In this document: piece by piece, positions 3,872 to 59,084 of the stretch
Layout of the letters: every line of letters begins with the position of its first letter
Position numbering within the stretch: the stretch's first letter is position 1
Source: an uncultured virus (IMG/VR IMGVR_UViG_3300044717_000012)
Lineage: Duplodnaviria > Heunggongvirae > Uroviricota > Caudoviricetes
Virus record (IMG/VR): IMGVR_UViG_3300044717_000012
Strand: one strand, 5' to 3'
Length of the DNA: 64,000 nucleotides
The notes under the pieces: model-generated
What the model was told of the DNA's origin: nothing
The model's input: only the letters and a program-made list of their open reading frames with translations
Database searches by the model: none
Translations under genes and position numbers: made by a program

Positions 3872-5286
3872 TAGTGGCCTACCAGTGCATCAGCCGGCGT
3901 GCCGGACAGCGCGAGCACAGCCGCCCACGTGGCATTGGCATTGATCACGTCTTGCCACGTAGCATAATTAGTTATCAGAGTTGCCCATGTCACGGTATTA
4001 CCGCCAAGTGAGACATCAGGCATGGTGACCTCAGTGAGCGGTACCGTGTAGTTGTTGTTGTGGCTCAAGTGCGCGGGCCGGGTGTATTTGTAGTTGCCCA
4101 GTGATGCATACATGCTCTTGAGCGCGCAGTTCGGGGGAACTGAGAGCAGCATGATGTTGCCGAGTGAGAGCAACAGATCCAGTGCGGCTGTCTCGGCATC
4201 CCCCGTTGTCCACAGATTGATATTAACGGTGCGCGGTGACGCCATGTCCGTAACCGCGCTCGCGTCACGCTTGCCGATCACGCTGTAGGTGATGGCCCGG
4301 CTACTGCGGTTGAGGTCATCCCAGTCAATCAAGGTCACGGTGCGGTTGAGGTAGGGCGCGGTGGGCACTTTGAGCCAGACCTGCGATTGCACGGGGGTCA
4401 CGGTGGCCGTGGTGCGCAGGACGTAGACCGCACTGCGCAGAGCCACTACCGCGCCGTAGCTGATGGCTGCGCTGCCGCCGGTCACGGTAAATGCCCCGCC
4501 GATGACGGGTGCCGGCGTGGTTTGCACTTGGTAATCCCAGACCTGCCCGGCACCACTGCCCGCTGTACTGGTGACCTCGCCGATCTCGGTAGCTCCGCTG
4601 ATAGTGGCGACGTTAGGCACTGTCCAGCTGGATTGGCGCCAACCGAAATACAAGATCACATCCCAGCTGGACTGGAATGCCGCCACGCCCGGATAGGTGA
4701 TGTTGGCCCCGCTAGGATTGAGCTGATAGGCCGTGGTGGCGGGGATGAGCTCGGTGTTGCGCCAGGCTGCCATCTGGGAGAGCACGTCTGCGCCGGCCGC
4801 ACCGCCCGTGACGGTGACCGTAGGAGCCGACTCAGCCACTGCCGCGCGTTTGCCGAACAGTGCCCAGTTGTCGGCCGCCAGCAGTGCTGTGTAGCCCGTG
4901 GGGGCCACTACGGTGCCCGTGCCGCTGTTGCGGATGCTGGCCAGGATGAGTAACAGGTCGCCCTCTTGCCAGCCCGCCGGTAGGGCCGGGGTCACGCTGG
5001 CGTTGTTGGCAGTCGCTGCGGTGCCGGCGGCAACAAAGCTGGGCGCAGCCGCGGATACCGCGGACACCCGGTAGTAGTTCAGGATCCCCGGGCTGTACTC
5101 GTAGTCAAAGCAGCTGGCCGCGTTGCTCGCTACCGGTACCGCGGAGCTGCCCCGAACTGACCGCCAGTGCACATTGTCGTTTGACCACTCGAATGCCGCC
5201 GTGGTGGCGATAGCCGGTAGGTTGGTGGCAGCGATGAGCACCCGGCCCCGCGAATCATCGTAGGTGGCAGTGACGTTGATAGTCAT
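3871..5286 (-). CDS. Minor tail protein (distal-tail-like, with inserted beta domain)
   Basis: Follows tape measure; DYEY..G..YYRV, WLK.P..PYLN, C-terminal TWATL..YATWQDV repeats. Confidence 0.75.
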   Translation of the reverse strand: MTINVTATYDDSRGRVLIAATNLPAIATTAAFEWSNDNVHWRSVRGSSAVPVASNAASCFDYEYSPGILNYYRVSAVSAAAPSFVAAGTAATANNASVTPALPAGWQEGDLLLILASIRNSGTGTVVAPTGYTALLAADNWALFGKRAAVAESAPTVTVTGGAAGADVLSQMAAWRNTELIPATTAYQLNPSGANITYPGVAAFQSSWDVILYFGWRQSSWTVPNVATISGATEIGEVTSTAGSGAGQVWDYQVQTTPAPVIGGAFTVTGGSAAISYGAVVALRSAVYVLRTTATVTPVQSQVWLKVPTAPYLNRTVTLIDWDDLNRSSRAITYSVIGKRDASAVTDMASPRTVNINLWTTGDAETAALDLLLSLGNIMLLSVPPNCALKSMYASLGNYKYTRPAHLSHNNNYTVPLTEVTMPDVSLGGNTVTWATLITNYATWQDVINANATWAAVLALSGTPADALVGH

Positions 5287-5474
5287 CCGTCATCATCCGG
5301 CCGGTAGACCGCTATTGACTGGGCACAAACAGCAATAACCCGGATGCCAGGCAGTAGTTTCTCTAATTCGCCGGCTACTTCATCAGCATCTCTGCGTGAA
5401 TTCACGTTCGGCACCACTACTATCAGGATGTCACCCGGCTTGGCAACAGCGGCATAAAAATTGATATCAGTCAC
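5283..5474 (-). CDS. Hypothetical protein
   Basis: 63 aa, 4-nt overlaps with both neighbours. Confidence 0.6.
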   Translation of the reverse strand: MTDINFYAAVAKPGDILIVVVPNVNSRRDADEVAGELEKLLPGIRVIAVCAQSIAVYRPDDDG

Positions 5475-21789: not shown

Positions 21790-22115
21790 TAAAGTGTGAT
21801 CCACTATTCGCATAAACCGCTGGAGAGAGAAATGCCGGAGACAGGCGGGTCTCCAAATGTTAATCCCTAAAAAAGAATTGCAATGATCAACTTTGCATGT
21901 GCAATTACTTATTATTCATATGATCATGTACATATACAATATGACCACATGATTAGCACATGCAATTATTATTTATTCATTTGATGATGCTATTTGCCAT
22001 TGCAACCAATCGTGTACACGAGCTCGTGTTGATTGTGTGTACACACATCATGCATTAGTATCACATGCATGAATGAATAACCAATCACACACATGAATAG
22101 AACAATCACACATAC
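21790..22115. other. AT-rich non-coding region, candidate cos/packaging (genome end) region
   Basis: Very low GC; imperfect repeats TGCAATTA(C/T)T..TATTCAT near 21899 and 21961; between HNH and terminase genes. Confidence 0.5.
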
Positions 22116-22119
22116 AGCC

Positions 22120-22148
22120 TTGACAGACTAAGTCAGATCTGACATACT
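22120..22148 (+). promoter_or_regulatory. Sigma70-type promoter with palindromic operator, copy 1
   Basis: TTGACA-17-CATACT, 6 nt before ATG 22155; palindrome GTCAGATCTGAC 22132-22143. Confidence 0.8.
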
Positions 22149-22154
22149 TATTGT

Positions 22155-24692: not shown

Positions 24693-25925
24693 ATGACCAC
24701 GACAACAACCCGCCAGCTCAGAGAATACCAGCAAGAGGGCTACGATGCCGTGTTAGCCGAGTGGGCACAAGGCATCAATCGCACCGTAGTCGTACACGCC
24801 ACGGGGCTAGGCAAAACTGACATCATCGCCAAACTGTGCACCGATGAGGCACTAGCCGGCGGCCGACCCATGGTCATAGCGCACCGCTCAGAGCCTCTGG
24901 ATCAGTTCGTGGCCCGGGTAGCGCAGTATGCAGCCATCCCGGTAGGCCGCATCCAGGCTGGCCTCAATGAGACTCACTGCCGCATCCTCGCCGCATCGGT
25001 GCAGACGTTGTGCCGGCCCAAGCGGATGGCCAGCTGCCCGAAACCCACCATGCTGATCATCGATGAGTGCCATCACGCAATGGCTGATTCCTACTGGGAT
25101 ATCATGCAGTGGGCTGGTTGTTTCGAGGGCCACGGTACCCGCACCGTTGGGTTTACCGCCACCCTGTACCGCGCGGATGGCCAGGCATTCGACCCGCTGT
25201 TCTCCAGCGTTGCAGATGTCAAGGGCATTGATTGGGCCATCGAGCACGGCTGGTTGGTCGAACCATACGGCCGGGTCATCAAGCTGCGCCAGTCACTCGA
25301 TCACATCCGCACCGTGGCCGGGGATCTTTCCGCCAGCGGCGTGGGCAACGTCATCGAGCAAGACGCACGGCGAATCGTCAAAGGCTGGCTGCGCGAGGCT
25401 GACAACCGCATCACGGTCGCCTTCGCACCCACCATCGAGAGTGCTAACGTGTTGGTAGATGCTTTCCTGGCAGCTAGCGTGGCCGCTGAGCTCGTGATCG
25501 GGTCAACCCCGCACGAGGATCGCAGCGCCATCTACAAGCGCCTGGCGGCCGGTGAGACTCGCGTGATGGTCAACGTAGGCGTGGCCACTGAGGCTTGGGA
25601 TTGCCCCGCAGTGTCCTGCGTACTCATCGCCCGGATGACCCAATCAGCGGGCCTCTATGAGCAGATGGTAGGCCGCGGGCTGCGTCTAGCCGATGGCAAG
25701 ACAGACTGTCTGGTGCTCGATGTGGTCGGCGTGACGCGCAAGTTCGAGCTCGTGACCCTGATCGATATCCGCAACGCGCGCTACCGCAGCATGCCAGAGA
25801 TGCCCCGCAATGGTGCCCGACCAGCCAAGCGTCATTGGTGGCAGCGCACGAACTACTCAGACGTAGGCCTCCTGCCTACCCCCAGCTTTGGCCGCCGCGT
25901 TCTCGATTTCATCAGAGGAAAGTGA
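24693..25925 (+). CDS. SF2 DExH helicase (ResIII/Irc3-like), copy 1
   Basis: LREYQ, TGLGKT, DECH, TAT, TEAWD.P, QMVGRGLR. Confidence 0.9.
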   Translation: MTTTTTRQLREYQQEGYDAVLAEWAQGINRTVVVHATGLGKTDIIAKLCTDEALAGGRPMVIAHRSEPLDQFVARVAQYAAIPVGRIQAGLNETHCRILAASVQTLCRPKRMASCPKPTMLIIDECHHAMADSYWDIMQWAGCFEGHGTRTVGFTATLYRADGQAFDPLFSSVADVKGIDWAIEHGWLVEPYGRVIKLRQSLDHIRTVAGDLSASGVGNVIEQDARRIVKGWLREADNRITVAFAPTIESANVLVDAFLAASVAAELVIGSTPHEDRSAIYKRLAAGETRVMVNVGVATEAWDCPAVSCVLIARMTQSAGLYEQMVGRGLRLADGKTDCLVLDVVGVTRKFELVTLIDIRNARYRSMPEMPRNGARPAKRHWWQRTNYSDVGLLPTPSFGRRVLDFIRGK

Positions 25926-32935: not shown

Positions 32936-35900
32936 TTAGCCTTTCGCTAGTGGGTGGTCATTGGACAACCAACGGTCAGATGGGTTGATCCATTTGGGTT
33001 CGGCACCGATGCGCACGCCGTAGAGCTCTGAGGCCATGCACTGCCCTAGAGCTGCCATGGCCTCATCAGCCTCTGCCGCGGGCACAGTGGCCAGAATCTC
33101 ATCATGCACGGGCACAATGATGCCGTAGTCGCCCCACTTTGTCTGGCGCCACCTCAGCAAACCATCCACAAGAATTTCCCTAGCGGTCCCCTGCACATAG
33201 TAGTTAACGATCTTGTGCGGTGTCGCAGACGGCAGATGCAATACCCGGCCGGAATAAAGCTGTATTCGCTGCATTCCCGCTTTCGCGCGGTTGCGCAAAT
33301 CATAGCCCCAACGCTTAGCGTGTGGTGCCAGGTCATCCAACGCCCGGACCATTTCGGTAGCTTCCTCATCACTGCAGCCAACTGTACTAGCGATGCGTTG
33401 GATACCCGCGCCGTAGAGTTTGGCAAAGACGCCGTTTTTGACGTAACCATACTGGCGGGGTGTGTATCCAGAGCCATAGACCTGCTCAGCAATGATTTTA
33501 TGCAGCTTCCGGCCGCTGGCCACTAGCTCTAGCAATACCTCATCCTGCGATAGCGCGGCCAGCACCGCGACCTCAACGCCCGATAGGTCAGCGTCGATAA
33601 ACAGGTCACCGGGGTCACAAACGTAGCATTCTCGAATACCGCCGTGAGTCGGGATGTTCTGTAGGTTTTCATGCACGCAGCTAAATCGGCCAGTATCAGC
33701 TTGTAGCGTGTACACGGTGGACCGCATCCGGCCGTCTCCCTGAGTACACAGCAAATAATATGGCTTGAGATAAGTAGACAACACCCGCTGGTGGTGCCGA
33801 TAGGTCAATAAAGCATCCACCACGGGGGCCAAATCCACTGTGCGTGGCAGCCGGTCCAACACATCTGCCTTGACGCTGGGTTTCCGAGCTTTCTCAGTGA
33901 GTGGAATCTGACCAGGACCATCACCCACTACAGCACCGCGCCGTAGCAGCTCAACCGCGACTTGGTCATTACTGGACGGGTTGAGGATCCCAAACTCAGC
34001 CAGCCGTGCCACCGCTGCCGCTCGCTGCGGTGAGTGCTCGGCAATCTTGGTCTCGATGTGGTCGCGATCGAGCGCAATCCCCACGTAGGAAACCGCTCCT
34101 ACAGCCGCCTGTACGGCCACCTCCCGGGCGTAGACCGCGGGCGCCGGCATCGGTAGTGCCTCGCCCAGCGCGGCTGTGTCATGGATGTCAGAGACGGCGT
34201 AATCGATGCTCGTGCGGTACCGGGGGTCGGCGTTGGCCCAGCCAGAGCGCGAGCGGTCCACCCAGCCACCGCTGTCATCGTCCCTGCCAGCAGAGCCCTT
34301 GACTTTCGTGTCGGTCAGCCAGCCGCCAGCCTTAAACAGCGCCGCGCGCCGCGCATCAGCCGCTGGGCTGACCGGATCGGGCAGATGCAGCCGGGATTGG
34401 GCCTTGAGTCCGTCATCGTGGCTCTCGGTACCAACCGGGTTGTGTAGCTGGGATTGGATCACAACGTCACGAGCGCGCAGCCAGCCGCTGCGGTAATCGA
34501 TCATGCCGATGTAGGCCAGGTTGGATATCTCGACTGATGCGGAGTAGGCCTCAATCTCGGTTGCCTCGCTCAGTAGCAAGGTGCACACGGCGAACTGCAC
34601 CGGGTCAGTGACATCCCAGTCCGTGCCGGTGATCTTGTCGCCCAGCTGCAGCGTGCGCACGCCATAGTCGGGGTGCCCGATCGGGTAGGCGTTGGATTCG
34701 ATATCGGCAGTCACACGGCCAGCCCGGGCCGCCATCGTGGCTCGCAGCGCAGCGGCAGCCTCATCGATTGAGCACGAGCGGGCCGGCTGACCCCGCAGCT
34801 TGATCACCGGCAGCTCTAGGAGATCGCCGCCAGCCGCGGCCACCGCAGCCGCTCGCTTGGCCGCCGCGCGGTGCCCCCGGATCATCACCTCGACTTGCTT
34901 GATCTCGCCGGCCAGCTGACCCACTGTGTACGTGTACACGCCGTGCAGGGGATCTGCCTCGCTAGTTTTCTTGATCAACCTGTTGAGCTGGGTGCGCTGG
35001 GCTCGCAGGTCGGCTAGCCGCGCCGTGGCGCTGTCCTCATCCATTTGGGCTAGCGGCTCGCAGGCCGCGATTGGCGCGGGGCTGGCCGCGGGCTCCGTGA
35101 CTGGTTGGGAAAATATCCCGTCACACCCGTTGTTCGAGGTCACGGGCTCGAAATCGCCTCCTGTGACGGGTGACGGGTTACCCCCGGGTTTATCCCCATA
35201 TATTTGCTCAGAGATCATTAAGGGAGATTGATCTTCATTTTTTATGACAGCTCCATAGCTAGAAAAACCCGTCAACCCGTCACATAGATCAAAAATAAGA
35301 CTATTACTACTGGTAGGGGGAATGTTGATCTTGTGACGGGTTTGTGACGGGTCGTGTGACGGGTTGCAACCCGTCACAAGATCAGGTCTCGTTTCAGTCA
35401 CAGGAGGGTGAACGGCGGGTGAAGTTGATTGCGTGGTACACGGGGTTGATGAATCGGACATTTCACTCGTTTGATCTTGTGAAGATCGTTTGTTACTCTG
35501 TTCGTGTCCGCGATCAAGCTCAGCGCTCGCGGCGAGGTCACCATCACCATCCGTTTGGCTTAGTTTTTCGCAGACGCGGTCACTATCAGGGGAACGGGGG
35601 TCAGCAGATGCGGTTTCGTTTGCTTGTGCACAGTTCCGCATTTGCGGCTCCGTTTTGAGACCGGGGGTAGGCTCATGCGGAACTACAGGTGGGCTACCTA
35701 TGATCGTTTCAGTTGGGGATGTGGGCAGGTCGCCGGGGTTGTCAGACGGTGACGCACTACCCCCGTCAGGTGCCGTAGTCGGTGCCGCATCTGCGGAGGG
35801 GCCTGTTGATCTGGGTGCGGCATTGCGTTGGTCGTACTGGATCACTGTGAGCGGGGGCATAGGGGGCAGCGGTGCATGGATCGGTTGGCCCGGCCCAGGT

Positions 35901-38476
35901 GCGCCTGGCGGGGGTACGTCAGGCCCGTAGTTGGTCTGCCGGCGCCGCAACGGGCGGTGTTTGCCGTCCCGTTGGTGGATGGCCGCGTAGCCCAGCTCAG
36001 TCAGTTTGCGGCCGAACAGCGTAGAGCTGGGAGGGTTGGCCCGGGGTGCGACCTTGCGCAGCCAGTCAATAAACCAGATGAGCAGGTCGCTGACCCGTGT
36101 TCCGTGCTCGCACGGTTCCATCTCGGCATCGATCCACTGCCTGATCTGATCTTCCTCATTGGCGATGTCTTCCGCGCGCCAGCGGATCGCCTCAGGCGCA
36201 CTCCACTGCGCAGCCACACCCGGATCATCGAGCCAGCGAGCGGTACAGTGCATCAGCTTGGCCAGCACGCCCGGTGCCTCTGCCCGCCAGATCGCCGGGG
36301 TGATCGCAGCCCGCGCCCGGCCGACCTCATCAGGCTTGCCCTCGCACGGGATCAATCGCAGCCGGCGCCGCAACGCCTTGTCTTGAAATCCTGGTGTCTC
36401 CTCTGGGTTGCAGGTCAACATCAAGGTGTGCGAGGGATCGAAGTTCACCGGGTTACCGCGCATCGGGTTGCCGGTCAGCCGGGCTCCCCCGGTGAGCTGC
36501 TTGAGTTTGGACACTGCCCATTTGGCATCTCGTGGCCCCTCATCGATGAAGGCCAGCCGGACCCCCCGCAGGGCGTAGATGATCGAGGCATGCGCGTTGT
36601 CGGCCGCGCTGGTCAGCAGTCGGGGATCCGCCGCGATGGCATAGCTGCCCAGCACGGACATCACCAGCGCGGTAAACGCCGTCTTCCCCCGGCCGGTCTC
36701 CCCCCAGAGCAGCGGCATCACCGCGTCTGAGTAGCCGGTCAGGGCCACAGAGACCACGTGCAGCGCCCACTCCCGGATAGCCGGATCTGGCCACACGGCG
36801 GCCAGAAAGGCATCCCAGGCCGGCGTAGGGTGCTCGATGCCCAGCCCAGAGGGCGCCACGCCGGCTGAGTGCAGGTGCGGGGTGTCCGCGGGCAGGCTGG
36901 CCAGCGCGGGACGCTCGATGCAGCTGCGCAGCGCCCACGGCAGCCGACCAGCCCACATAATCTCGGGATCGGCATCGAGATCGGACAACCGGACCGTGCT
37001 CGATGCGCCAGAGGCCCGCACCAGCGCCCGCAGTTTGCTCGCTATCCCCGCTGACCCGCTGTTTTGCCCAAATCGTTTGCGCCGTGACGCGCGGTCCTGC
37101 GCCTCAGTGGATTCTGAGTCCGGGTCGCCGTGGGGCATCAGGTCGAACAGCTCCGTCAGTGCCCAGTCGGCCATATCGCCGGGCGCCATATCCCAGGAAT
37201 ACGGGCCACGGACCGCCCACGCACCCACATCGGTGGCGAACCGCAGCACCGGTTGGATCCGCTCTAGCGCTTGGGCAGCGAGCACCTGATCGAGATGCCC
37301 GCGGGGATCGAAGGCACCAGTGCCGATCAGCGCTCGCCTAGACCAGACAATGGGCGGTGCCGGCGCGGGGATATCGAGCACATCGGCATCACTGGCGTCA
37401 TCGAGCTCACCATCAGGGCCAGTCGTGTGGCTAGGCCGGCCCGGGACCGGCGGCGCGACGACGGTACCCATCAGGCATGGGTCATAGGCCACGGGCACCG
37501 GGCAGCCGGTGGCGCTGACTTCGGTTACTGCCTTGCACGCCGCGGAGCTGGCCATCCGCTCGAACTCATCGGCCCGGTGCTCGCCAGAGGTCAGGGCATC
37601 CCAGCGGGTGCGCAGGTCAGCCAGCACCTCGCCTGCGCCAGGGTGGCCGAACGCAGCCGCCCGGATCAGCTGGAAGATCCGACCGGTGGCGATGTCATGA
37701 CGGCTGCCCGCCGCTGCGTGGTCAAGCTCATCGGCCGCGGTCAGGGCGATGTTGGTGATGTCCGCGCACGGCGGCCGGTCATCATCGAGCAGAGCAGCGA
37801 GCAGCGCCGCGCCCTCCTGCATAGGTGCTGCCGGTGCGCTGGCCGCGCTGGCGCCTTCCGCGAGCCCGATCACCCAGGCGTTGGGCAGTAGCGCCAGCTC
37901 ATCGATCCACGGTGGCCGTTGCTCGCCCAGATCCCCGGGGGAATACCAGTAGTACTGCGCATTGTTGGCGTCCGGGTTGATCGAAGGCCACACCACGCAG
38001 TAGCGGTGGTGGCGCTGCAGGATTTCCACCGCGCCGTTGCGCGGGTCGCCCAGAGTGGTGGCGTAGCGCCCTGGCGGCACCCGGTAAAACAGCGTCCGGG
38101 AAGGGCCGGCGCCCGTGTTGGGATCCCCTCGCGCGGTGCTCGCCCAGGTGGGCGGCAGCGGTCCCCACTTGGCCTCATATTCGGTGATGGTGTCATTGCC
38201 CCGCTTGGCCACCACGGTGACCGTGCCATCGGGCAGCACCTTGGGCTTATCGTAATGATCGATATCGATACAGATCACGCCGGCCGGCAGCCGCAATGCG
38301 ATCGAGTCATCCGCGTGAGCTCGCTCCCATTTCGCCAGCACCTCAGGCGCTACCACATCGGTACCGTGATCACCCGTGTAGCCGGTAGGTGGCGGTGTCT
38401 TCGACCGGACCGGCACCGGCAGCACACACCGCCAGCCAGCTATCACATAGAATGATGCATATCCACCGTAAGCCAT
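32936..38476 (-). CDS. Fused bifunctional primase-polymerase + SF3 (P4/D5-like) helicase + 3'-5' exo-like + family A DNA polymerase
   Basis: Prim-Pol: KTPP.TGYTG, ICIDIDHY, YCVVWPS. SF3: GETGRGKT, LAFIDE, LKQLTGG, TCN, RRRL. PolA: ADIE, YAVSD, TGRFS..NLQNIP, DLSGVE, KNGVFAKLYG, VQGTAREI, VHDE. Confidence 0.9.
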   Translation of the reverse strand: MAYGGYASFYVIAGWRCVLPVPVRSKTPPPTGYTGDHGTDVVAPEVLAKWERAHADDSIALRLPAGVICIDIDHYDKPKVLPDGTVTVVAKRGNDTITEYEAKWGPLPPTWASTARGDPNTGAGPSRTLFYRVPPGRYATTLGDPRNGAVEILQRHHRYCVVWPSINPDANNAQYYWYSPGDLGEQRPPWIDELALLPNAWVIGLAEGASAASAPAAPMQEGAALLAALLDDDRPPCADITNIALTAADELDHAAAGSRHDIATGRIFQLIRAAAFGHPGAGEVLADLRTRWDALTSGEHRADEFERMASSAACKAVTEVSATGCPVPVAYDPCLMGTVVAPPVPGRPSHTTGPDGELDDASDADVLDIPAPAPPIVWSRRALIGTGAFDPRGHLDQVLAAQALERIQPVLRFATDVGAWAVRGPYSWDMAPGDMADWALTELFDLMPHGDPDSESTEAQDRASRRKRFGQNSGSAGIASKLRALVRASGASSTVRLSDLDADPEIMWAGRLPWALRSCIERPALASLPADTPHLHSAGVAPSGLGIEHPTPAWDAFLAAVWPDPAIREWALHVVSVALTGYSDAVMPLLWGETGRGKTAFTALVMSVLGSYAIAADPRLLTSAADNAHASIIYALRGVRLAFIDEGPRDAKWAVSKLKQLTGGARLTGNPMRGNPVNFDPSHTLMLTCNPEETPGFQDKALRRRLRLIPCEGKPDEVGRARAAITPAIWRAEAPGVLAKLMHCTARWLDDPGVAAQWSAPEAIRWRAEDIANEEDQIRQWIDAEMEPCEHGTRVSDLLIWFIDWLRKVAPRANPPSSTLFGRKLTELGYAAIHQRDGKHRPLRRRQTNYGPDVPPPGAPGPGQPIHAPLPPMPPLTVIQYDQRNAAPRSTGPSADAAPTTAPDGGSASPSDNPGDLPTSPTETIIGSPPVVPHEPTPGLKTEPQMRNCAQANETASADPRSPDSDRVCEKLSQTDGDGDLAASAELDRGHEQSNKRSSQDQTSEMSDSSTPCTTQSTSPAVHPPVTETRPDLVTGCNPSHDPSQTRHKINIPPTSSNSLIFDLCDGLTGFSSYGAVIKNEDQSPLMISEQIYGDKPGGNPSPVTGGDFEPVTSNNGCDGIFSQPVTEPAASPAPIAACEPLAQMDEDSATARLADLRAQRTQLNRLIKKTSEADPLHGVYTYTVGQLAGEIKQVEVMIRGHRAAAKRAAAVAAAGGDLLELPVIKLRGQPARSCSIDEAAAALRATMAARAGRVTADIESNAYPIGHPDYGVRTLQLGDKITGTDWDVTDPVQFAVCTLLLSEATEIEAYSASVEISNLAYIGMIDYRSGWLRARDVVIQSQLHNPVGTESHDDGLKAQSRLHLPDPVSPAADARRAALFKAGGWLTDTKVKGSAGRDDDSGGWVDRSRSGWANADPRYRTSIDYAVSDIHDTAALGEALPMPAPAVYAREVAVQAAVGAVSYVGIALDRDHIETKIAEHSPQRAAAVARLAEFGILNPSSNDQVAVELLRRGAVVGDGPGQIPLTEKARKPSVKADVLDRLPRTVDLAPVVDALLTYRHHQRVLSTYLKPYYLLCTQGDGRMRSTVYTLQADTGRFSCVHENLQNIPTHGGIRECYVCDPGDLFIDADLSGVEVAVLAALSQDEVLLELVASGRKLHKIIAEQVYGSGYTPRQYGYVKNGVFAKLYGAGIQRIASTVGCSDEEATEMVRALDDLAPHAKRWGYDLRNRAKAGMQRIQLYSGRVLHLPSATPHKIVNYYVQGTAREILVDGLLRWRQTKWGDYGIIVPVHDEILATVPAAEADEAMAALGQCMASELYGVRIGAEPKWINPSDRWLSNDHPLAKG
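35097..35402. repeat. Iteron-like GTGACGGG/CCCGTCAC cluster around AT-rich core (candidate replication origin)
   Basis: Copies at 35117, 35163, 35170, 35276, 35333, 35344, 35356, 35370, variants at 35097, 35268; palindrome 35356-35377. Confidence 0.75.
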
Positions 38477-39399: not shown

Positions 39400-40245
39400 T
39401 CACATCCCCCATCTATCGCGCGGTACCCAGTCTGGCCATCCGACATCAGCTTGTGCAGTCGGCAGCACGTCCGGGCTTAGTTTGATTGTTTTTCTCATGG
39501 CGTTGCTCTGGGCATCTGTCACCGCATGATCGGATTTCCCAAGAGCCTGCAGCACCCGGCCGGCGGCAGCGTGTACGTCACCATCAGCGTAGGTGCGCGA
39601 GTACATCGCCACGGTGGTCAGGTCATCAGCGGTAGCACCACCTGAACGGCATTGGACCTGTTTTTCAATCGGTATACGCTGATCTATGCAGGAATCGGTG
39701 TGCCAAATTGGTTCGTCCTCACCCGGCCGGATGCAATCACAGATCATCACATCAAGTGGGAAAATAGGCATTTCAAGATCCCAGGCTGTACGGGTTTCCA
39801 GCCGGGCACCTCTGGATTTTTCCCAGCCCGGCAGCATCACCAATGCGTCACACCACAACATTGCGTGCAGGTCACGTTTCATTGCGCCTTGCCAACCCAA
39901 CATGATGAGATTGCCGTACTCAGCTGGATTGATCACCACGTGACCGCATGCCCGCAGCGCAGCGGCAGCCTCGTGGAATGCCGGGTGATTGTGATCAGGG
40001 TATCCTGCCATTGGACCGGCGAGATAACACACGTTGATTGTATGTTTCATAGTATCGGGAGTCATTTTTCTGATGATCCTTCCCTGCGCACGTTGACCAC
40101 ATGAACAGTAAACACAACGGCCGATTTGCTTACGTGTATGTTGGTTGTGCCGGTTGGTGCCGGTGAGTATGTCATTTAAGTCTTGCAAATGGGCACGAAC
40201 AAGAGCGACCTGCTCAGGCGTAGGTACACTCCAGTTAGTGCTCAT
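39400..40245 (-). CDS. DUF4406 / nucleoside 2-deoxyribosyltransferase-like domain protein
   Basis: YLAGPM.G....N.PAF..AA..LR..G..V.NPA...CDA.VMLPGWEKSRGA.LE. Confidence 0.8.
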   Translation of the reverse strand: MSTNWSVPTPEQVALVRAHLQDLNDILTGTNRHNQHTRKQIGRCVYCSCGQRAQGRIIRKMTPDTMKHTINVCYLAGPMAGYPDHNHPAFHEAAAALRACGHVVINPAEYGNLIMLGWQGAMKRDLHAMLWCDALVMLPGWEKSRGARLETRTAWDLEMPIFPLDVMICDCIRPGEDEPIWHTDSCIDQRIPIEKQVQCRSGGATADDLTTVAMYSRTYADGDVHAAAGRVLQALGKSDHAVTDAQSNAMRKTIKLSPDVLPTAQADVGWPDWVPRDRWGM

Positions 40246-40643
40246 AGTCTTTTGCCCCCATGCCGGTATTCACGGGTGCGGTTGTACGCTGTCTTTCGGT
40301 CGTATTCGGCTTGTAGATCGATGCCGTGCACGTAGCAGTAATGCATAAGTCGGATAAAGATGTCTGCGAATTCTGACCCGACACCCTCAGGCTTGCCGTC
40401 TTTGCCTTCCCAGGCCTCGAATCCGCGTTTGCGGTATGCCTCGAATGCCTCGCTGGCCTCTGTGTGAATCAGTGCAATCTCATCACCAAAGGTGCGGGTA
40501 TGTGCGTCTTCCTCCCATCCTTTTGAGACGGCCACCTCATACGACTCTATAGTCAGATCAGCCAGGTAGTGACCCCGCGTGCTCTCGATGGCTTTTTTGA
40601 CAGCCTCTGAGATGTCCTGCTGAGTGGCGGTGAAATAGCTCAT
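40242..40643 (-). CDS. MazG-like nucleotide pyrophosphohydrolase
   Basis: IALIHTEASEAFEAYR...SEFADIFIRL...K..YN.TR.YRHGGK. Confidence 0.85.
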   Translation of the reverse strand: MSYFTATQQDISEAVKKAIESTRGHYLADLTIESYEVAVSKGWEEDAHTRTFGDEIALIHTEASEAFEAYRKRGFEAWEGKDGKPEGVGSEFADIFIRLMHYCYVHGIDLQAEYDRKTAYNRTREYRHGGKRL

Positions 40644-41272
40644 GATTGCGTAGCCCTTTCAATGATTGTTCGGATATCCTCTGTGGGTGGGCGGTAGTTG
40701 ACACCCTTGGTGACTTTGTTGTCCTCGCGCAGCGCGGGACTGCCATCAGCATTGGTGCGCGTGAGCAGTGACCGGTACAACGCCCGCAGCACTTCATCGA
40801 GCGGGATACCCAGGCTGTGTGCCGTGCCATAGGCCACCCACACCACATCGGCCAGCTCGTGCGCCACCGCGGTCAACCAATCGACCACACCGGTACCGCC
40901 TGGGGCATTCGACTCCAGTGCCTCGATGAGCTCGGCATGTTCGCTGTTGTGCAAGTTGATGCGCAGACTGCAATCCCCGGTGCCCTCCCCGAAACGTTCG
41001 TCATAGGCCCACCCATGGAAATATGCCACAAGATGAGCTGGGCTCATTGCGCGCTGCACTCGCGGCTCTGGTCGGGGATGTTCGGCACCCATGCCCCCGC
41101 ATAATGACGGCAAAACACTAGGCGTTGCTTCCCAATTTTGGCCACGGATATTGCTCATATTGATGTCCTGTAATGTTGGGCAATCAGGATTGTGGGTAGC
41201 GTTGACACATGCGTTGCACCCGCGGCAGTGTTTGCTCCAATGCGCATTGCAGGTGCCACACATGGATGTCAC
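40640..41272 (-). CDS. MazG/PRA-PH-like (all-alpha) NTP pyrophosphatase
   Basis: LR..L..SEHAEL.EA...HELADVVWVAYG.A..LGIPLD...RED.KV.KG.NY.PP. Confidence 0.8.
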   Translation of the reverse strand: MTSMCGTCNAHWSKHCRGCNACVNATHNPDCPTLQDINMSNIRGQNWEATPSVLPSLCGGMGAEHPRPEPRVQRAMSPAHLVAYFHGWAYDERFGEGTGDCSLRINLHNSEHAELIEALESNAPGGTGVVDWLTAVAHELADVVWVAYGTAHSLGIPLDEVLRALYRSLLTRTNADGSPALREDNKVTKGVNYRPPTEDIRTIIERATQS

Positions 41273-42856: not shown

Positions 42857-43189
42857 CTACGTGTTCTGTATCTGTCTCTGGTCGTATTCGGGTGGTAGTT
42901 GAGTCGCGTACGTGGGAATCATCGCGCAGATGCTGGCATTGTCTCCCCGGTGTGGCCCGCCATCGGGGGTACCCGTGAAGTTTTCCGCTCGCCATTCCTC
43001 GAAACGCTCCGCGAGTTTGCGGATCTGCCCGCAGTACTCAGGATCCATCCCGTGCTGATACTGGGCAACATCTGCATAGGCACGTAATGCGTGCGGCGCC
43101 GCGGGATCTGATGCACCGATCACGAACCATGGCCAGCTGGGTACGGATCCGTCCCGGCGCCTTACCAGGAATTTGTTAAATAGCCTCAT
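42857..43189 (-). CDS. Conserved phage hypothetical protein
   Basis: KFLV.RRDG...FV.GA.DP.A..ALRAYA. Confidence 0.7.
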   Translation of the reverse strand: MRLFNKFLVRRRDGSVPSWPWFVIGASDPAAPHALRAYADVAQYQHGMDPEYCGQIRKLAERFEEWRAENFTGTPDGGPHRGDNASICAMIPTYATQLPPEYDQRQIQNT

Positions 43190-57902: not shown

Positions 57903-59084
57903 TTATCTCCCTTGTACTGAGTGCCATAGCTTCTGCAGGAGGTGAGGTCGTTTTTCCTCTCGCACGTTTCGCGGGTTGATGTCAATGAGAGTGGTTAGGT
58001 CGAATTTCCAAGTTGCACCGACCGTATCGAGTATTAGACAATTGGTTTTTGCCTTTCCGGTAGTGGGATCAATCCACGGTTGTTGTGTTGCCGGATCAAT
58101 GCAAGGTCGTAAACCCCTCCCAATCATCTGGGTGAATAGTCCTGCTGATTGTGTGGAACGTGCGAGGAGAATGCAACTTACCTGTGGGCAATCAAATCCC
58201 TCGGTAGCTACATTGACGTTAACCATTACTCTGATCTCGCCGCCGGCCAGTTGCTTGTAGATGAGTTTGCGATCCTCGTAAGGTGTCGCCCCGATGACTA
58301 AAGCAACTGGAACGTGGAGGCTCTCAAATGCGGCAGTGAGGTAATGAGCTTCCTCAATACTCTGCGCGTAAGCAATCGTGATCCGATTCTGTGCCTTGCG
58401 CACCCATCCCTCTGCAACCCGTTGGGCATCGCGCTGGAGTAGTTCCTCTGCGGAAAGAGAGCGGAAGCTGAATCGATCCCAGAATCGATTGAGACTAATG
58501 TGTCTTACAACGGGCTGCACCAATAACTTCTGGCGGAATGCCCAGTCATAGGAGATCACATCAGCAACCGACTGGAACAGACCATCGAAAGATTGTCCGT
58601 CAGTGCGGCTGAGAGTGGCGGTGACGCCGAGCAGTCTGGTGCGCCGGCCGTCAAAGCAGCCAGCCCATTGCGCGATATCCAGATACGAGTCAGTCATGCT
58701 GTGCTGGCACTCATCAATGATGACCAGCGTGGGCTGCCAGTTGAGCGCGGCTCGACGTTTCGGCCGGCACAATGTCTGGACGGAGGCCACCACGATTGAT
58801 TGGTCGGTGTCGCTGCGGTTTCCCTGGATCCGTCCGACTGGCAGTGGTGAGTAGTGGCTGATGCGCGTGATTATTTGATCCAGTAGTTCTACCCGGTGGG
58901 CGAGAAACAGCACGCGTCCACCATTGTCCACCTCATCCACGCATAGCTTTGCGGTCGTGTCGTTTTTGCCGGCACCCGTGGGATGAACAATGGCGGTCCG
59001 AACAATCCCGCCGGCCCACTCGGTTTGGATGTGGGTGATGGCATTCTGTTGGTATGATCGCAGCTGGCGAGTGCTGGCGGTCAT
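57903..59084 (-). CDS. SF2 helicase (ResIII/Irc3-like), copy 2, variant motifs
   Basis: LRSYQ, TGAGKN, DECQ, TAT, TEGFD.P, QMIGRGLR; colinear with 24693-25925. Confidence 0.88.
   Translation of the reverse strand: MTASTRQLRSYQQNAITHIQTEWAGGIVRTAIVHPTGAGKNDTTAKLCVDEVDNGGRVLFLAHRVELLDQIITRISHYSPLPVGRIQGNRSDTDQSIVVASVQTLCRPKRRAALNWQPTLVIIDECQHSMTDSYLDIAQWAGCFDGRRTRLLGVTATLSRTDGQSFDGLFQSVADVISYDWAFRQKLLVQPVVRHISLNRFWDRFSFRSLSAEELLQRDAQRVAEGWVRKAQNRITIAYAQSIEEAHYLTAAFESLHVPVALVIGATPYEDRKLIYKQLAGGEIRVMVNVNVATEGFDCPQVSCILLARSTQSAGLFTQMIGRGLRPCIDPATQQPWIDPTTGKAKTNCLILDTVGATWKFDLTTLIDINPRNVREEKRPHLLQKLWHSVQGR

Follow-up and report, generated by a model that had tools for sequence, protein, structure and literature searches.

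A predicted single-chain Prim-Pol, SF3 helicase and family A polymerase of actinomycete phages, with a probable replication origin inside its own gene

The uncultured tailed-phage record IMGVR_UViG_3300044717_000012 from IMG/VR was analyzed as one stretch of 64,000 nucleotides, referred to here as the window. On its minus strand lies an uninterrupted open reading frame (ORF) of 1846 amino acids, from ATG to TAA, whose product, P0001, is predicted to join an archaeo-eukaryotic primase (AEP) domain of the Prim-Pol type, a superfamily 3 (SF3) helicase whose C-terminal domain is a winged helix (WH), a long tether, a 3'-5' exonuclease and a family A DNA polymerase (PolA) in a single chain (Table 1). 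An earlier note on this DNA, made from the letters alone, had described the ORF as an all-in-one replisome; the ORF itself was confirmed, and the motifs it named (DID, YCVVWPS at residues 159–165, GETGRGKT, DIE, YAVSD, and PolA motifs A, B and C) are all present as placed. Here, we report that this replicase belongs to a family of fused proteins, and that the DNA encoding its tether carries a conserved cluster of iterons around an AT-rich stretch, which is probably the replication origin of the phage.

The domain assignments made earlier held up in hidden Markov model searches, in which Prim-Pol, DUF5906, TIGR01613 and DNA_pol_A were all matched. Scores were far above the cutoff at both ends of the chain (58.7 bits versus 22.8 for PF09250, and 145.5 versus 34.3 for PF00476). 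Between them, residues 548–791 passed the NCBIfam model TIGR01613 (P4-family primase C-terminal/helicase) by a narrow margin (111.0 bits versus 108.7), and the SF3 ATPase core DUF5906 (PF19263) was matched at residues 590–704 (E 3.8e-6). PHROG divides the protein into a primase (phrog_1156, residues 3–835) and a DNA polymerase (phrog_17, residues 1249–1828), and matches in a PDB sequence search with the whole of P0001 were confined to the PolA part (Taq, Klenow and PREX polymerases). The exonuclease family PF01612 was matched only in relatives, and support for this domain in P0001 comes from PHROG, NCBIfam and the motifs. The DxD (DID, 71–73) and HHRY (156–159) motifs of the Prim-Pol domain, which we take to correspond to AEP motifs I and II, are nearly invariant among 15 relatives. 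In alignment A1, D71, D73, H156 and H157 are nearly invariant, as are D1258 and E1260 of the exonuclease; V161, V162, P164 and S165 of the Prim-Pol domain, Y1426 and D1430 of the exonuclease, and D1630, K1680, Y1688, G1689, H1791, D1792 and E1793 of PolA are invariant, with PolA motifs A, B and C (VHDE) located at residues 1628–1635, 1680–1691 and 1790–1793, respectively. An AlphaFold2 (AF2) model of residues 545–862, built on an alignment with 37 relatives (predicted local distance difference test score 85.5), was assigned a D5-like fold by Foldseek, in agreement with the proposed helicase type. The top matches were D5-like primase-helicases, including the C962R PrimPol of African swine fever virus (E 2e-12) and E5 of monkeypox virus, and the model also matched the SaPI5 primase-helicase PriRep (7ola, E 1.2e-8).

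The triple fusion recurs well beyond the window. Matches to P0001 in a large protein collection comprised 95 long relatives (1015–3231 aa), 85 of which have PF00476 listed together with PF09250 and/or PF19263; some appear in NCBI under the name 'DNA polymerase', from Micromonospora or Nocardioides. Eight others carry PolA only, with or without an exonuclease family, although they are 1540–1588 aa long, and the two without PolA are truncated fragments, one with an intein in Walker A. At the nucleotide level, a single frame extends from helicase to PolA in all 31 testable IMG/VR loci (L028, cut by a contig end, was excluded), in 14 of 16 loci from actinomycete genomes (Nocardioides, Micromonospora, Kribbella, Labedaea, Mycobacterium and others), and in both of the only two loci found in a metagenome scan with P0001. 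The two exceptions among the genome loci are L055, a distant unfused relative, and L056, both taken up below. Contigs from four other soil-metagenome studies (X2–X5) cover the ORF at 90%–99% likeness and show no frame-breaking indel. The single ORF indel, seen in one contig of low depth, is a +1/-1 pair at 34957/34960, separated by 3 nt. Fusion is, accordingly, the rule in the replicase clade, possibly with exceptions, and its retention across so many sequences indicates that it is genuine and under selection. The view that PolA is normally encoded by a separate gene is borne out for cultured actinophages, among which none of 2903 matching phage records covers at least 80% of P0001 and, in the records listed, primase/helicase and Pol I are adjacent separate genes. 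On the other hand, the uniqueness of the triple fusion implied by the earlier note was overstated, given a sizeable existing family and the precedents of gp55, Pas55 and PREX considered below.

The linker between the helicase and exonuclease modules differs from the rest of the gene in composition and rate of change. Its GC content at third codon positions (GC3) is 0.42–0.52 versus 0.75–0.85 in the flanks, and the ratio of nonsynonymous to synonymous substitution rates (dN/dS) is 0.33–0.46 versus 0.04–0.14 in the enzyme domains (a value of 0.71 for the repeat/AT core is inflated by the compensated frameshift described below and was set aside as evidence). It measures ~370 aa in the window and the relatives closest to it, and 100–190 aa in most others. 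The few conserved 'islands' within the linker in the protein alignment arise because they are translations of a DNA repeat. The peptide is weakly constrained, but the low-complexity linker of the earlier note is more than a spacer, because its DNA carries a conserved iteron/AT-rich element.

In the window, this element is built on the 9-mer ACCCGTCAC. Seven of the eight exact copies in the whole 64 kb fall within 215 bp of the linker, and 10 of the 27 matches with up to one mismatch fall within 281 bp, where ~0.08 would be expected by chance. The cluster also includes a triple direct repeat and a perfect inverted repeat. Both orientations of ACCCGTCAC occur on both sides of the AT-rich stretch, as they do in relatives, and this stretch has the lowest GC of the ORF and the fourth to fifth lowest of the window (tied at 200 nt). 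Copies fall in different codon phases and, being in both orientations as well, encode unrelated peptides. A search of positions 34400–36200 against Rfam returned only two sub-threshold microRNA-type hairpin matches (E 0.72 and 0.74), one of which is the iteron inverted repeat itself, and the linker is hence explained by no known RNA family. An apparent enrichment of GATC in the AT-rich core was rejected: there are 7 sites in 300 nt, but 400 window-wide (6.25 per kb), and other stretches contain 8.

Table 1. Positions of the replicase gene, its predicted domains and motifs, and the repeat element in the window
Feature	Position	Strand	Basis or remark
Replicase ORF P0001, 1846 aa, ATG to TAA	32936..38476	-	ORF call; both halves share a single frame in relatives
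AEP Prim-Pol domain, residues 9-189	37910..38452	-	PF09250 E 1.2e-15; DID 71-73, HHRYCVVWPS 156-165
P4/D5-type SF3 helicase, residues 548-791	36104..36835	-	TIGR01613, PF19263, AlphaFold model, Foldseek
Walker A GETGRGKT, residues 592-599	36680-36703	-	Motif read
Walker B, FIDE at residues 643-646	36536-36553	-	Motif read
C-terminal winged-helix-like domain, about residues 795-845	35942..36094	-	AF2 model
H834	35975-35977	-	Predicted beta-hairpin strand
K839	35960-35962	-	Predicted beta-hairpin strand
Inter-domain linker, about residues 850-1215, Pro/Ser/Thr-rich	34832..35929	-	GC3, dN/dS
Iteron cluster, 10 x ACCCGTCAC (7 exact, 3 one-mismatch), both orientations	35097..35377	.	Repeat search
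Perfect 17-nt inverted repeat	35326-35342 / 35368-35384	.	Part of iteron cluster
AT-rich stretch between iteron groups, 154 bp, GC 0.40 (sub-stretches 0.39, 0.33)	35179..35332	.	Candidate unwinding element
3'-5' exonuclease domain, about residues 1250-1450	34127..34729	-	phrog_17, NCBIfam matches, motifs
ExoI TADIES, residues 1256-1261	34694-34711	-	Motif read
ExoIII YAVSD, residues 1426-1430	34187-34201	-	Motif read
Family A DNA polymerase, residues 1481-1817	33026..34036	-	PF00476 E 2.7e-42; motifs A, B, C

Comparable clusters occupy the linkers of relatives. In 29 of 32 IMG/VR loci, it is the linker that holds the densest 8-mer cluster found anywhere in the ~10-kb locus, and in 30 of 32 it also holds the lowest-GC 120-nt window of the ORF. 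Linkers carry 5–18 copies of a 7-mer, versus 0–7 elsewhere in the locus. The motif itself varies by lineage (ACCCGTCAC, ACCCTTCAC, ACCCTCCAC, ACCCTGCAC, ACCCGACAC, ACTGGTCAC and AACTGTCCG), with a lineage-specific core at positions 5 and 6 (GT, TT, TC, TG, GA or GG). Across whole records, the cluster is unique, with 8/8, 10/10 and 11/13 copies in one ~300-bp stretch; all 8 copies of a complete 82,450-bp relative fall within 262 bp, and all 10 copies of ACCCTCCAC in a 110-kb record within 282 bp. The relationship between the DNA motif and the peptide is exposed by L001, L040 and L041, in which two iterons are read in a shifted frame owing to the loss of 1 nt and the gain of 1 nt some 37 nt away. 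At the DNA level these iterons are identical to those of the window, the peptide is different, and the original frame then resumes. Such compensation points to a dual constraint, namely to preserve the DNA motif and to keep the frame open, and comparison of these sequences indicates that the iteron element is conserved at the DNA level. Six cultured phages in which primase/helicase and Pol I are adjacent but distinct genes (Rona, Shaeky, Rowa, Swervy, Nitro and Samy) served as negative controls. None showed a repeat cluster at the junction, and copy numbers did not exceed 3 per 350 nt, which means that actinophages do not generally carry an origin between these genes.

An unfused relative offers a further comparison. 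L055, from a Pseudonocardia metagenome-assembled genome (MAG), encodes a Prim-Pol/helicase of 36% identity, and PolA was undetected in the ~1.4 kb downstream. At L055:3975–4253, inverted groups of ATCCGCCAC surround an AT/purine-rich stretch: three to four copies of GTGGCGGAT begin 6 nt past the stop codon, followed by the AT/purine-rich stretch and four to five reverse complements. By analogy, this element looks like a classical origin of the kind that the pathogenicity islands (SaPIs) of Staphylococcus aureus carry, here in an actinomycete element, which suggests that the fused family may have arisen when such an origin was read through into a downstream polymerase gene.

An indication of what may read the iterons comes from co-variation between the motif and the WH. 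In the AF2 model (model numbering), helices 251–265 and 274–283 are followed by strands 289–291 and 294–301, and H834 and K839 are placed in the predicted hairpin. From an alignment of 36 non-redundant proteins, we scored 1324 columns for how well they track the iteron core dinucleotide. Linker columns score high, trivially, because they translate the iterons; the best columns outside the linker were 839 for base 5 and 834 for base 6, the latter ranking first overall. Where the iteron has G at base 5, residue 839 is K or R, and where it has T, residue 839 is N, H or V; T at base 6 goes with H at residue 834, and C or G with mostly K or R. The resulting pairings of core with residues 834/839 are GT with H/K, TT with H/N, TC with K or R/N, and TG with K/H. 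These pairings seem to be in line with common amino-acid/base preferences. The same associations were evaluated on independent pairs, using a tree from the N-terminal part of the protein with the WH left out. About six of seven independent pairs were concordant and none opposite for base 6 and column 834 (p about 0.031), and about four of five, again with none opposite, for base 5 and column 839 (p about 0.125, short of significance). Close proteins with switched motifs include L003 versus L008 and L012, L016 versus L019 and L045, and L017 versus L024, and the later-found L075 obeys the same 834/839 rule. From the sequences and the model, the replicase's own WH appears to read the iteron motif.

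Taken as a whole, these observations favor, with reasonable though incomplete confidence, a reading in which P0001 would be a self-loading initiator akin to SaPI Rep and P4 alpha, with its origin in frame inside its own gene. The predicted WH hairpin would read the middle of each iteron in the gene that encodes it, SF3 hexamers would load themselves on both flanks of the AT-rich DNA and melt it, priming would fall to the Prim-Pol domain, and tethered exonuclease/PolA units would carry out extension. The idea from the earlier note that a putative helicase hexamer tethers several PolA units is plausible. More speculatively, the codons of the WH come just upstream of its sites, so that coupling of transcription and translation could favor action in cis, and transcription through the origin could aid its opening, as for lambda (PMC5043065). 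A stronger form of the proposal is possible but tentative: the 5.5-kb ORF might constitute a one-gene replicon holding initiator, helicase, primase, polymerase and origin, with specificity set largely by H834 and K839 and lineages repeatedly re-paired.

Alternatives concern both the fusion and the function of the repeats. It is scarcely credible that the long ORF is an assembly or frameshift artefact merging two genes. The window does derive from a metagenome-type assembly, and assembly graphs of other runs split into short alternative unitigs exactly at the iteron block (35366–35479); the repeats cause assembly bubbles, which may explain some truncated or frameshifted database proteins of the replicase family. 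However, dozens of assemblies made independently show the same frame, among them isolate genomes from Micromonospora, Nocardioides, Kribbella and Labedaea, and it is continuous in the contigs of four other studies. An improbable but more serious alternative is that one chain is translated and then acts as separate enzymes, either because the tether is cleaved in the manner of a polyprotein or because PolA is also made from an internal start, in which case the open linker would reflect mainly translational coupling and not a tethered replisome. The weakly constrained linker peptide, which accepts large insertions, fits this view, as do the distinct gene products of cultured relatives and the description of gp55 as mainly dimers, not hexamers (PMC12205980). 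Some shorter relatives may also be truly unfused: eight proteins of 850–973 aa (P0098–P0105, 46%–51% identity) stop in or near the linker, and among the five whose sequences were read (P0098, P0099, P0102, P0103 and P0105), the tails of P0099, P0102 and P0105 resemble frameshifted translation, leaving P0098 and P0103 as forms that may be genuinely unfused. These cases count against a universal fusion, and so does L056, the frame of which is broken within the exonuclease domain while its linker is intact. Opposed to separate enzymes are the compensation of the frameshift within about 37 nt and, weakly, the fact that around residue 1200 neither the window nor L001 was seen to have an internal start or ribosome-binding site that is conserved. 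The gene frame is also stop-free in all 31 non-redundant linkers (5639 codons), versus 173 and 234 stops in the other two forward frames, a count that took the longest ORF as the gene frame and hence mainly restates that the longest ORF spans both halves.

It is also possible, though unlikely, that the fusion is real and the repeat cluster is some other cis-acting site, for instance one for partition or packaging, a roadblock serving autoregulation, or an enhancer like P4 crr, bound by the replicase or by another protein, with initiation elsewhere, for example at ~22 kb. The region at 21856–22150 is the most AT-rich of the window (GC 0.26–0.33), is intergenic and carries the repeated palindromes TTGCATGTGCAA and GCACATGCAA, which speaks for this alternative; situated at a strand switch, it is probably an operator/promoter region and is also the main alternative origin candidate. 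Further points that tell against an in-frame origin read by the WH are the base-5 test, the weak clusters of L004, L030 and L031 (4–7 copies, no clear excess), and departures from the pairing rule, both at residue 839 (W with GT in L002 and L029, R in L056 and L057, and R with TC in L014) and at residue 834 (Q in L012, P in L007). Conversely, iteron groups around an AT-rich centre beside an SF3 helicase and WH match the SaPI origin (PMC9371898), each complete genome has a single cluster, the co-variation indicates the replicase's own WH as the reader, and in the unfused L055 the same element follows immediately on the helicase gene. On balance, we retain the in-frame origin as the preferred reading.

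SaPIs are among the closest known systems. SaPI Rep is reported to read, through its WH, 6–12 iterons flanking an AT-rich region just downstream of rep (PMC9371898). P0001 resembles Rep and PriRep in combining an SF3 helicase (primase-fused in SaPI5) and a C-terminal WH with two iteron groups around an AT-rich centre, and the window has at least two opposed iterons on each side of that centre, as expected of a SaPI Rep origin. The SaPI origin, however, is non-coding and directly follows rep, an arrangement seen only in L055, whereas the ORF itself contains the element in the window and in every fused relative. P0001 differs further in its in-frame 9-mer iterons, the continuation of the ORF into an exonuclease and PolA, its AEP Prim-Pol primase, its actinomycete host and its carriage by a full tailed phage. 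P4 has its origin outside the alpha gene, and it is with alpha that P0001 shares a helicase passing the TIGR01613 cutoff. Alpha and D5-family members are described as binding the origin via a C-terminal WH, and alpha, unlike P0001, as having a DnaG-type primase (PMC4889955). Alpha also has no polymerase. For an origin within the coding sequence of its initiator, phage lambda offers a precedent: ori-lambda, with iterons and an AT-rich region, lies inside gene O, whose product binds it (PMC5043065). This likeness is in gene/origin layout only, as O is without helicase, primase or polymerase, and the candidate origin of P0001 separates two enzyme modules. General Pfam, PHROG and NCBIfam scans of P0001 revealed no O-like family, O homology not having been specifically sought.

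Single-chain replicases have been described before. The 'four-in-one replicase' gp55 of Lactococcus phage 1706, which displays all four activities in vitro (PMC12205980), likewise unites SF3 helicase, AEP primase, 3'-5' exonuclease and DNA polymerase in one polypeptide (PMC4889955, PMC12205980). It differs from P0001 in having a family B polymerase and a helicase N-terminal to the primase, and P0001 is thus not of the gp55 type; an intragenic origin goes unmentioned in the available text of both sources. Pas55 of Actinoplanes phage phiAsp2 (NC_005885) is a helicase-primase-PolA fusion from a Micromonosporaceae phage (PMC4889955). Its primase, however, is of the Toprim/DUF3854 type, and its alignment with P0001 is limited to the PolA part (26% identity, E 1e-18). 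An AT dip is absent from the gene, in which the most clustered 7-mer forms only a weak, GC-rich group (CCCGGAG, 5 copies in ~310 nt). The apicoplast polyprotein PREX, the helicase of which is of the DnaB/Twinkle type, has polymerase structures matched by the PolA part of P0001 at E about 2e-14. PREX holds primase, helicase, exonuclease and PolA in one chain, and differs in its TOPRIM primase and in being a eukaryotic organelle enzyme (PMC10201439). As far as its available text goes, the 2023 PolA survey gives AEP fusions only for a 'Hot Spring' cluster and assigns D29-like actinophage PolAs 'no known partners' (PMC10201439). We found in the open-access literature, supplements aside, no fusion of Prim-Pol, SF3 helicase and PolA in actinophages and no origin in the linker of such a fusion. 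All-in-one replicases are already known, and what is new here is a PolA-based Prim-Pol/SF3 family with a presumed in-frame origin.

The replicase gene of the window is itself a mosaic. Compared with L001, the N-terminal part has 95% DNA identity and the exonuclease/PolA part (32936–34729) 78%, with synonymous divergence (dS) of 0.18 and 0.90, respectively, and the GC of the PolA half is 0.54–0.57 versus 0.68; L040 is about 94%–95% identical to the window in either part. An exchange of the polymerase half seems to have taken place, its breakpoint lying close to the linker. Insertions are found in several relatives. P0004, L040 (about 5000–5350) and L041 have a ~110-aa in-frame linker insertion with a recombination endonuclease VII signature (A1 columns about 1003–1090; PF02945 listed for P0004), which leaves the frame intact and is, from its sequence signature, a mobile nuclease module that landed in the tether. 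Intein-like insertions occur in PolA of P0012 and P0008, next to the DTGR/SCVHEN and KNGVF/AKLYG junctions, and in the helicase Walker A motif of P0045, the latter with LAGLIDADG_3. The ORFs of L018, L021 and L025 (1864–2004 codons) are longer than those of most relatives, and their split PolA alignments suggest inteins. The same replicase locus is present twice on one 101,680-bp MAG contig (L045 and L046, ~47 kb apart), suggesting a tandem prophage or a concatemeric assembly.

The wider window is that of a tailed phage, with large terminase, portal, protease, major head, tail and tape measure proteins encoded at 1–19 kb and a module for replication and nucleotide metabolism at 24–48 kb. A relative of 91% identity is located on the complete 82,450-bp genome, which has direct terminal repeats, and the carrier is a tailed phage of soil actinomycetes of roughly 82 kb. 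No tRNA was found in a search across the window, and its GC skew is governed by one-strand transcription and is uninformative. Just upstream of the replicase (39400–41272), genes match nucleoside 2-deoxyribosyltransferase and MazG-like pyrophosphatases, and DpoZ models gave weak, far sub-threshold matches to the PolA part (24 bits, cutoff 500); this neighborhood is suggestive as to modified bases, for which there is no evidence. Two paralogous genes, at 24693–25925 (+) and 57903–59084 (-), match phrog_16 'DNA helicase' (E 9.5e-79 and 8.4e-71), and a third helicase-like gene at 43186–45078 matches phrog_62.

All-in-one replicases are sought as minimal replication machines, and this family adds a widespread PolA-based version in phages and prophages of soil actinomycetes, with the missing cis element, the origin, suggested within the same gene. 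If the one-gene replicon were true, a small DNA could be replicated by it in an origin-specific and primer-independent way that needs few host factors, and orthogonal origin/initiator pairs would be ready-made. For annotation, the case is also a warning that the linkers of replication proteins labelled 'low-complexity' may be under conservation as DNA. An origin role, if true, would explain why a fast-evolving and seemingly junk linker stays open in every lineage. The family would then offer a natural series of matched initiator/origin specificities, two residues versus two bases, and would show that a gene fusion can arise via read-through of an origin that once lay between helicase and polymerase genes.

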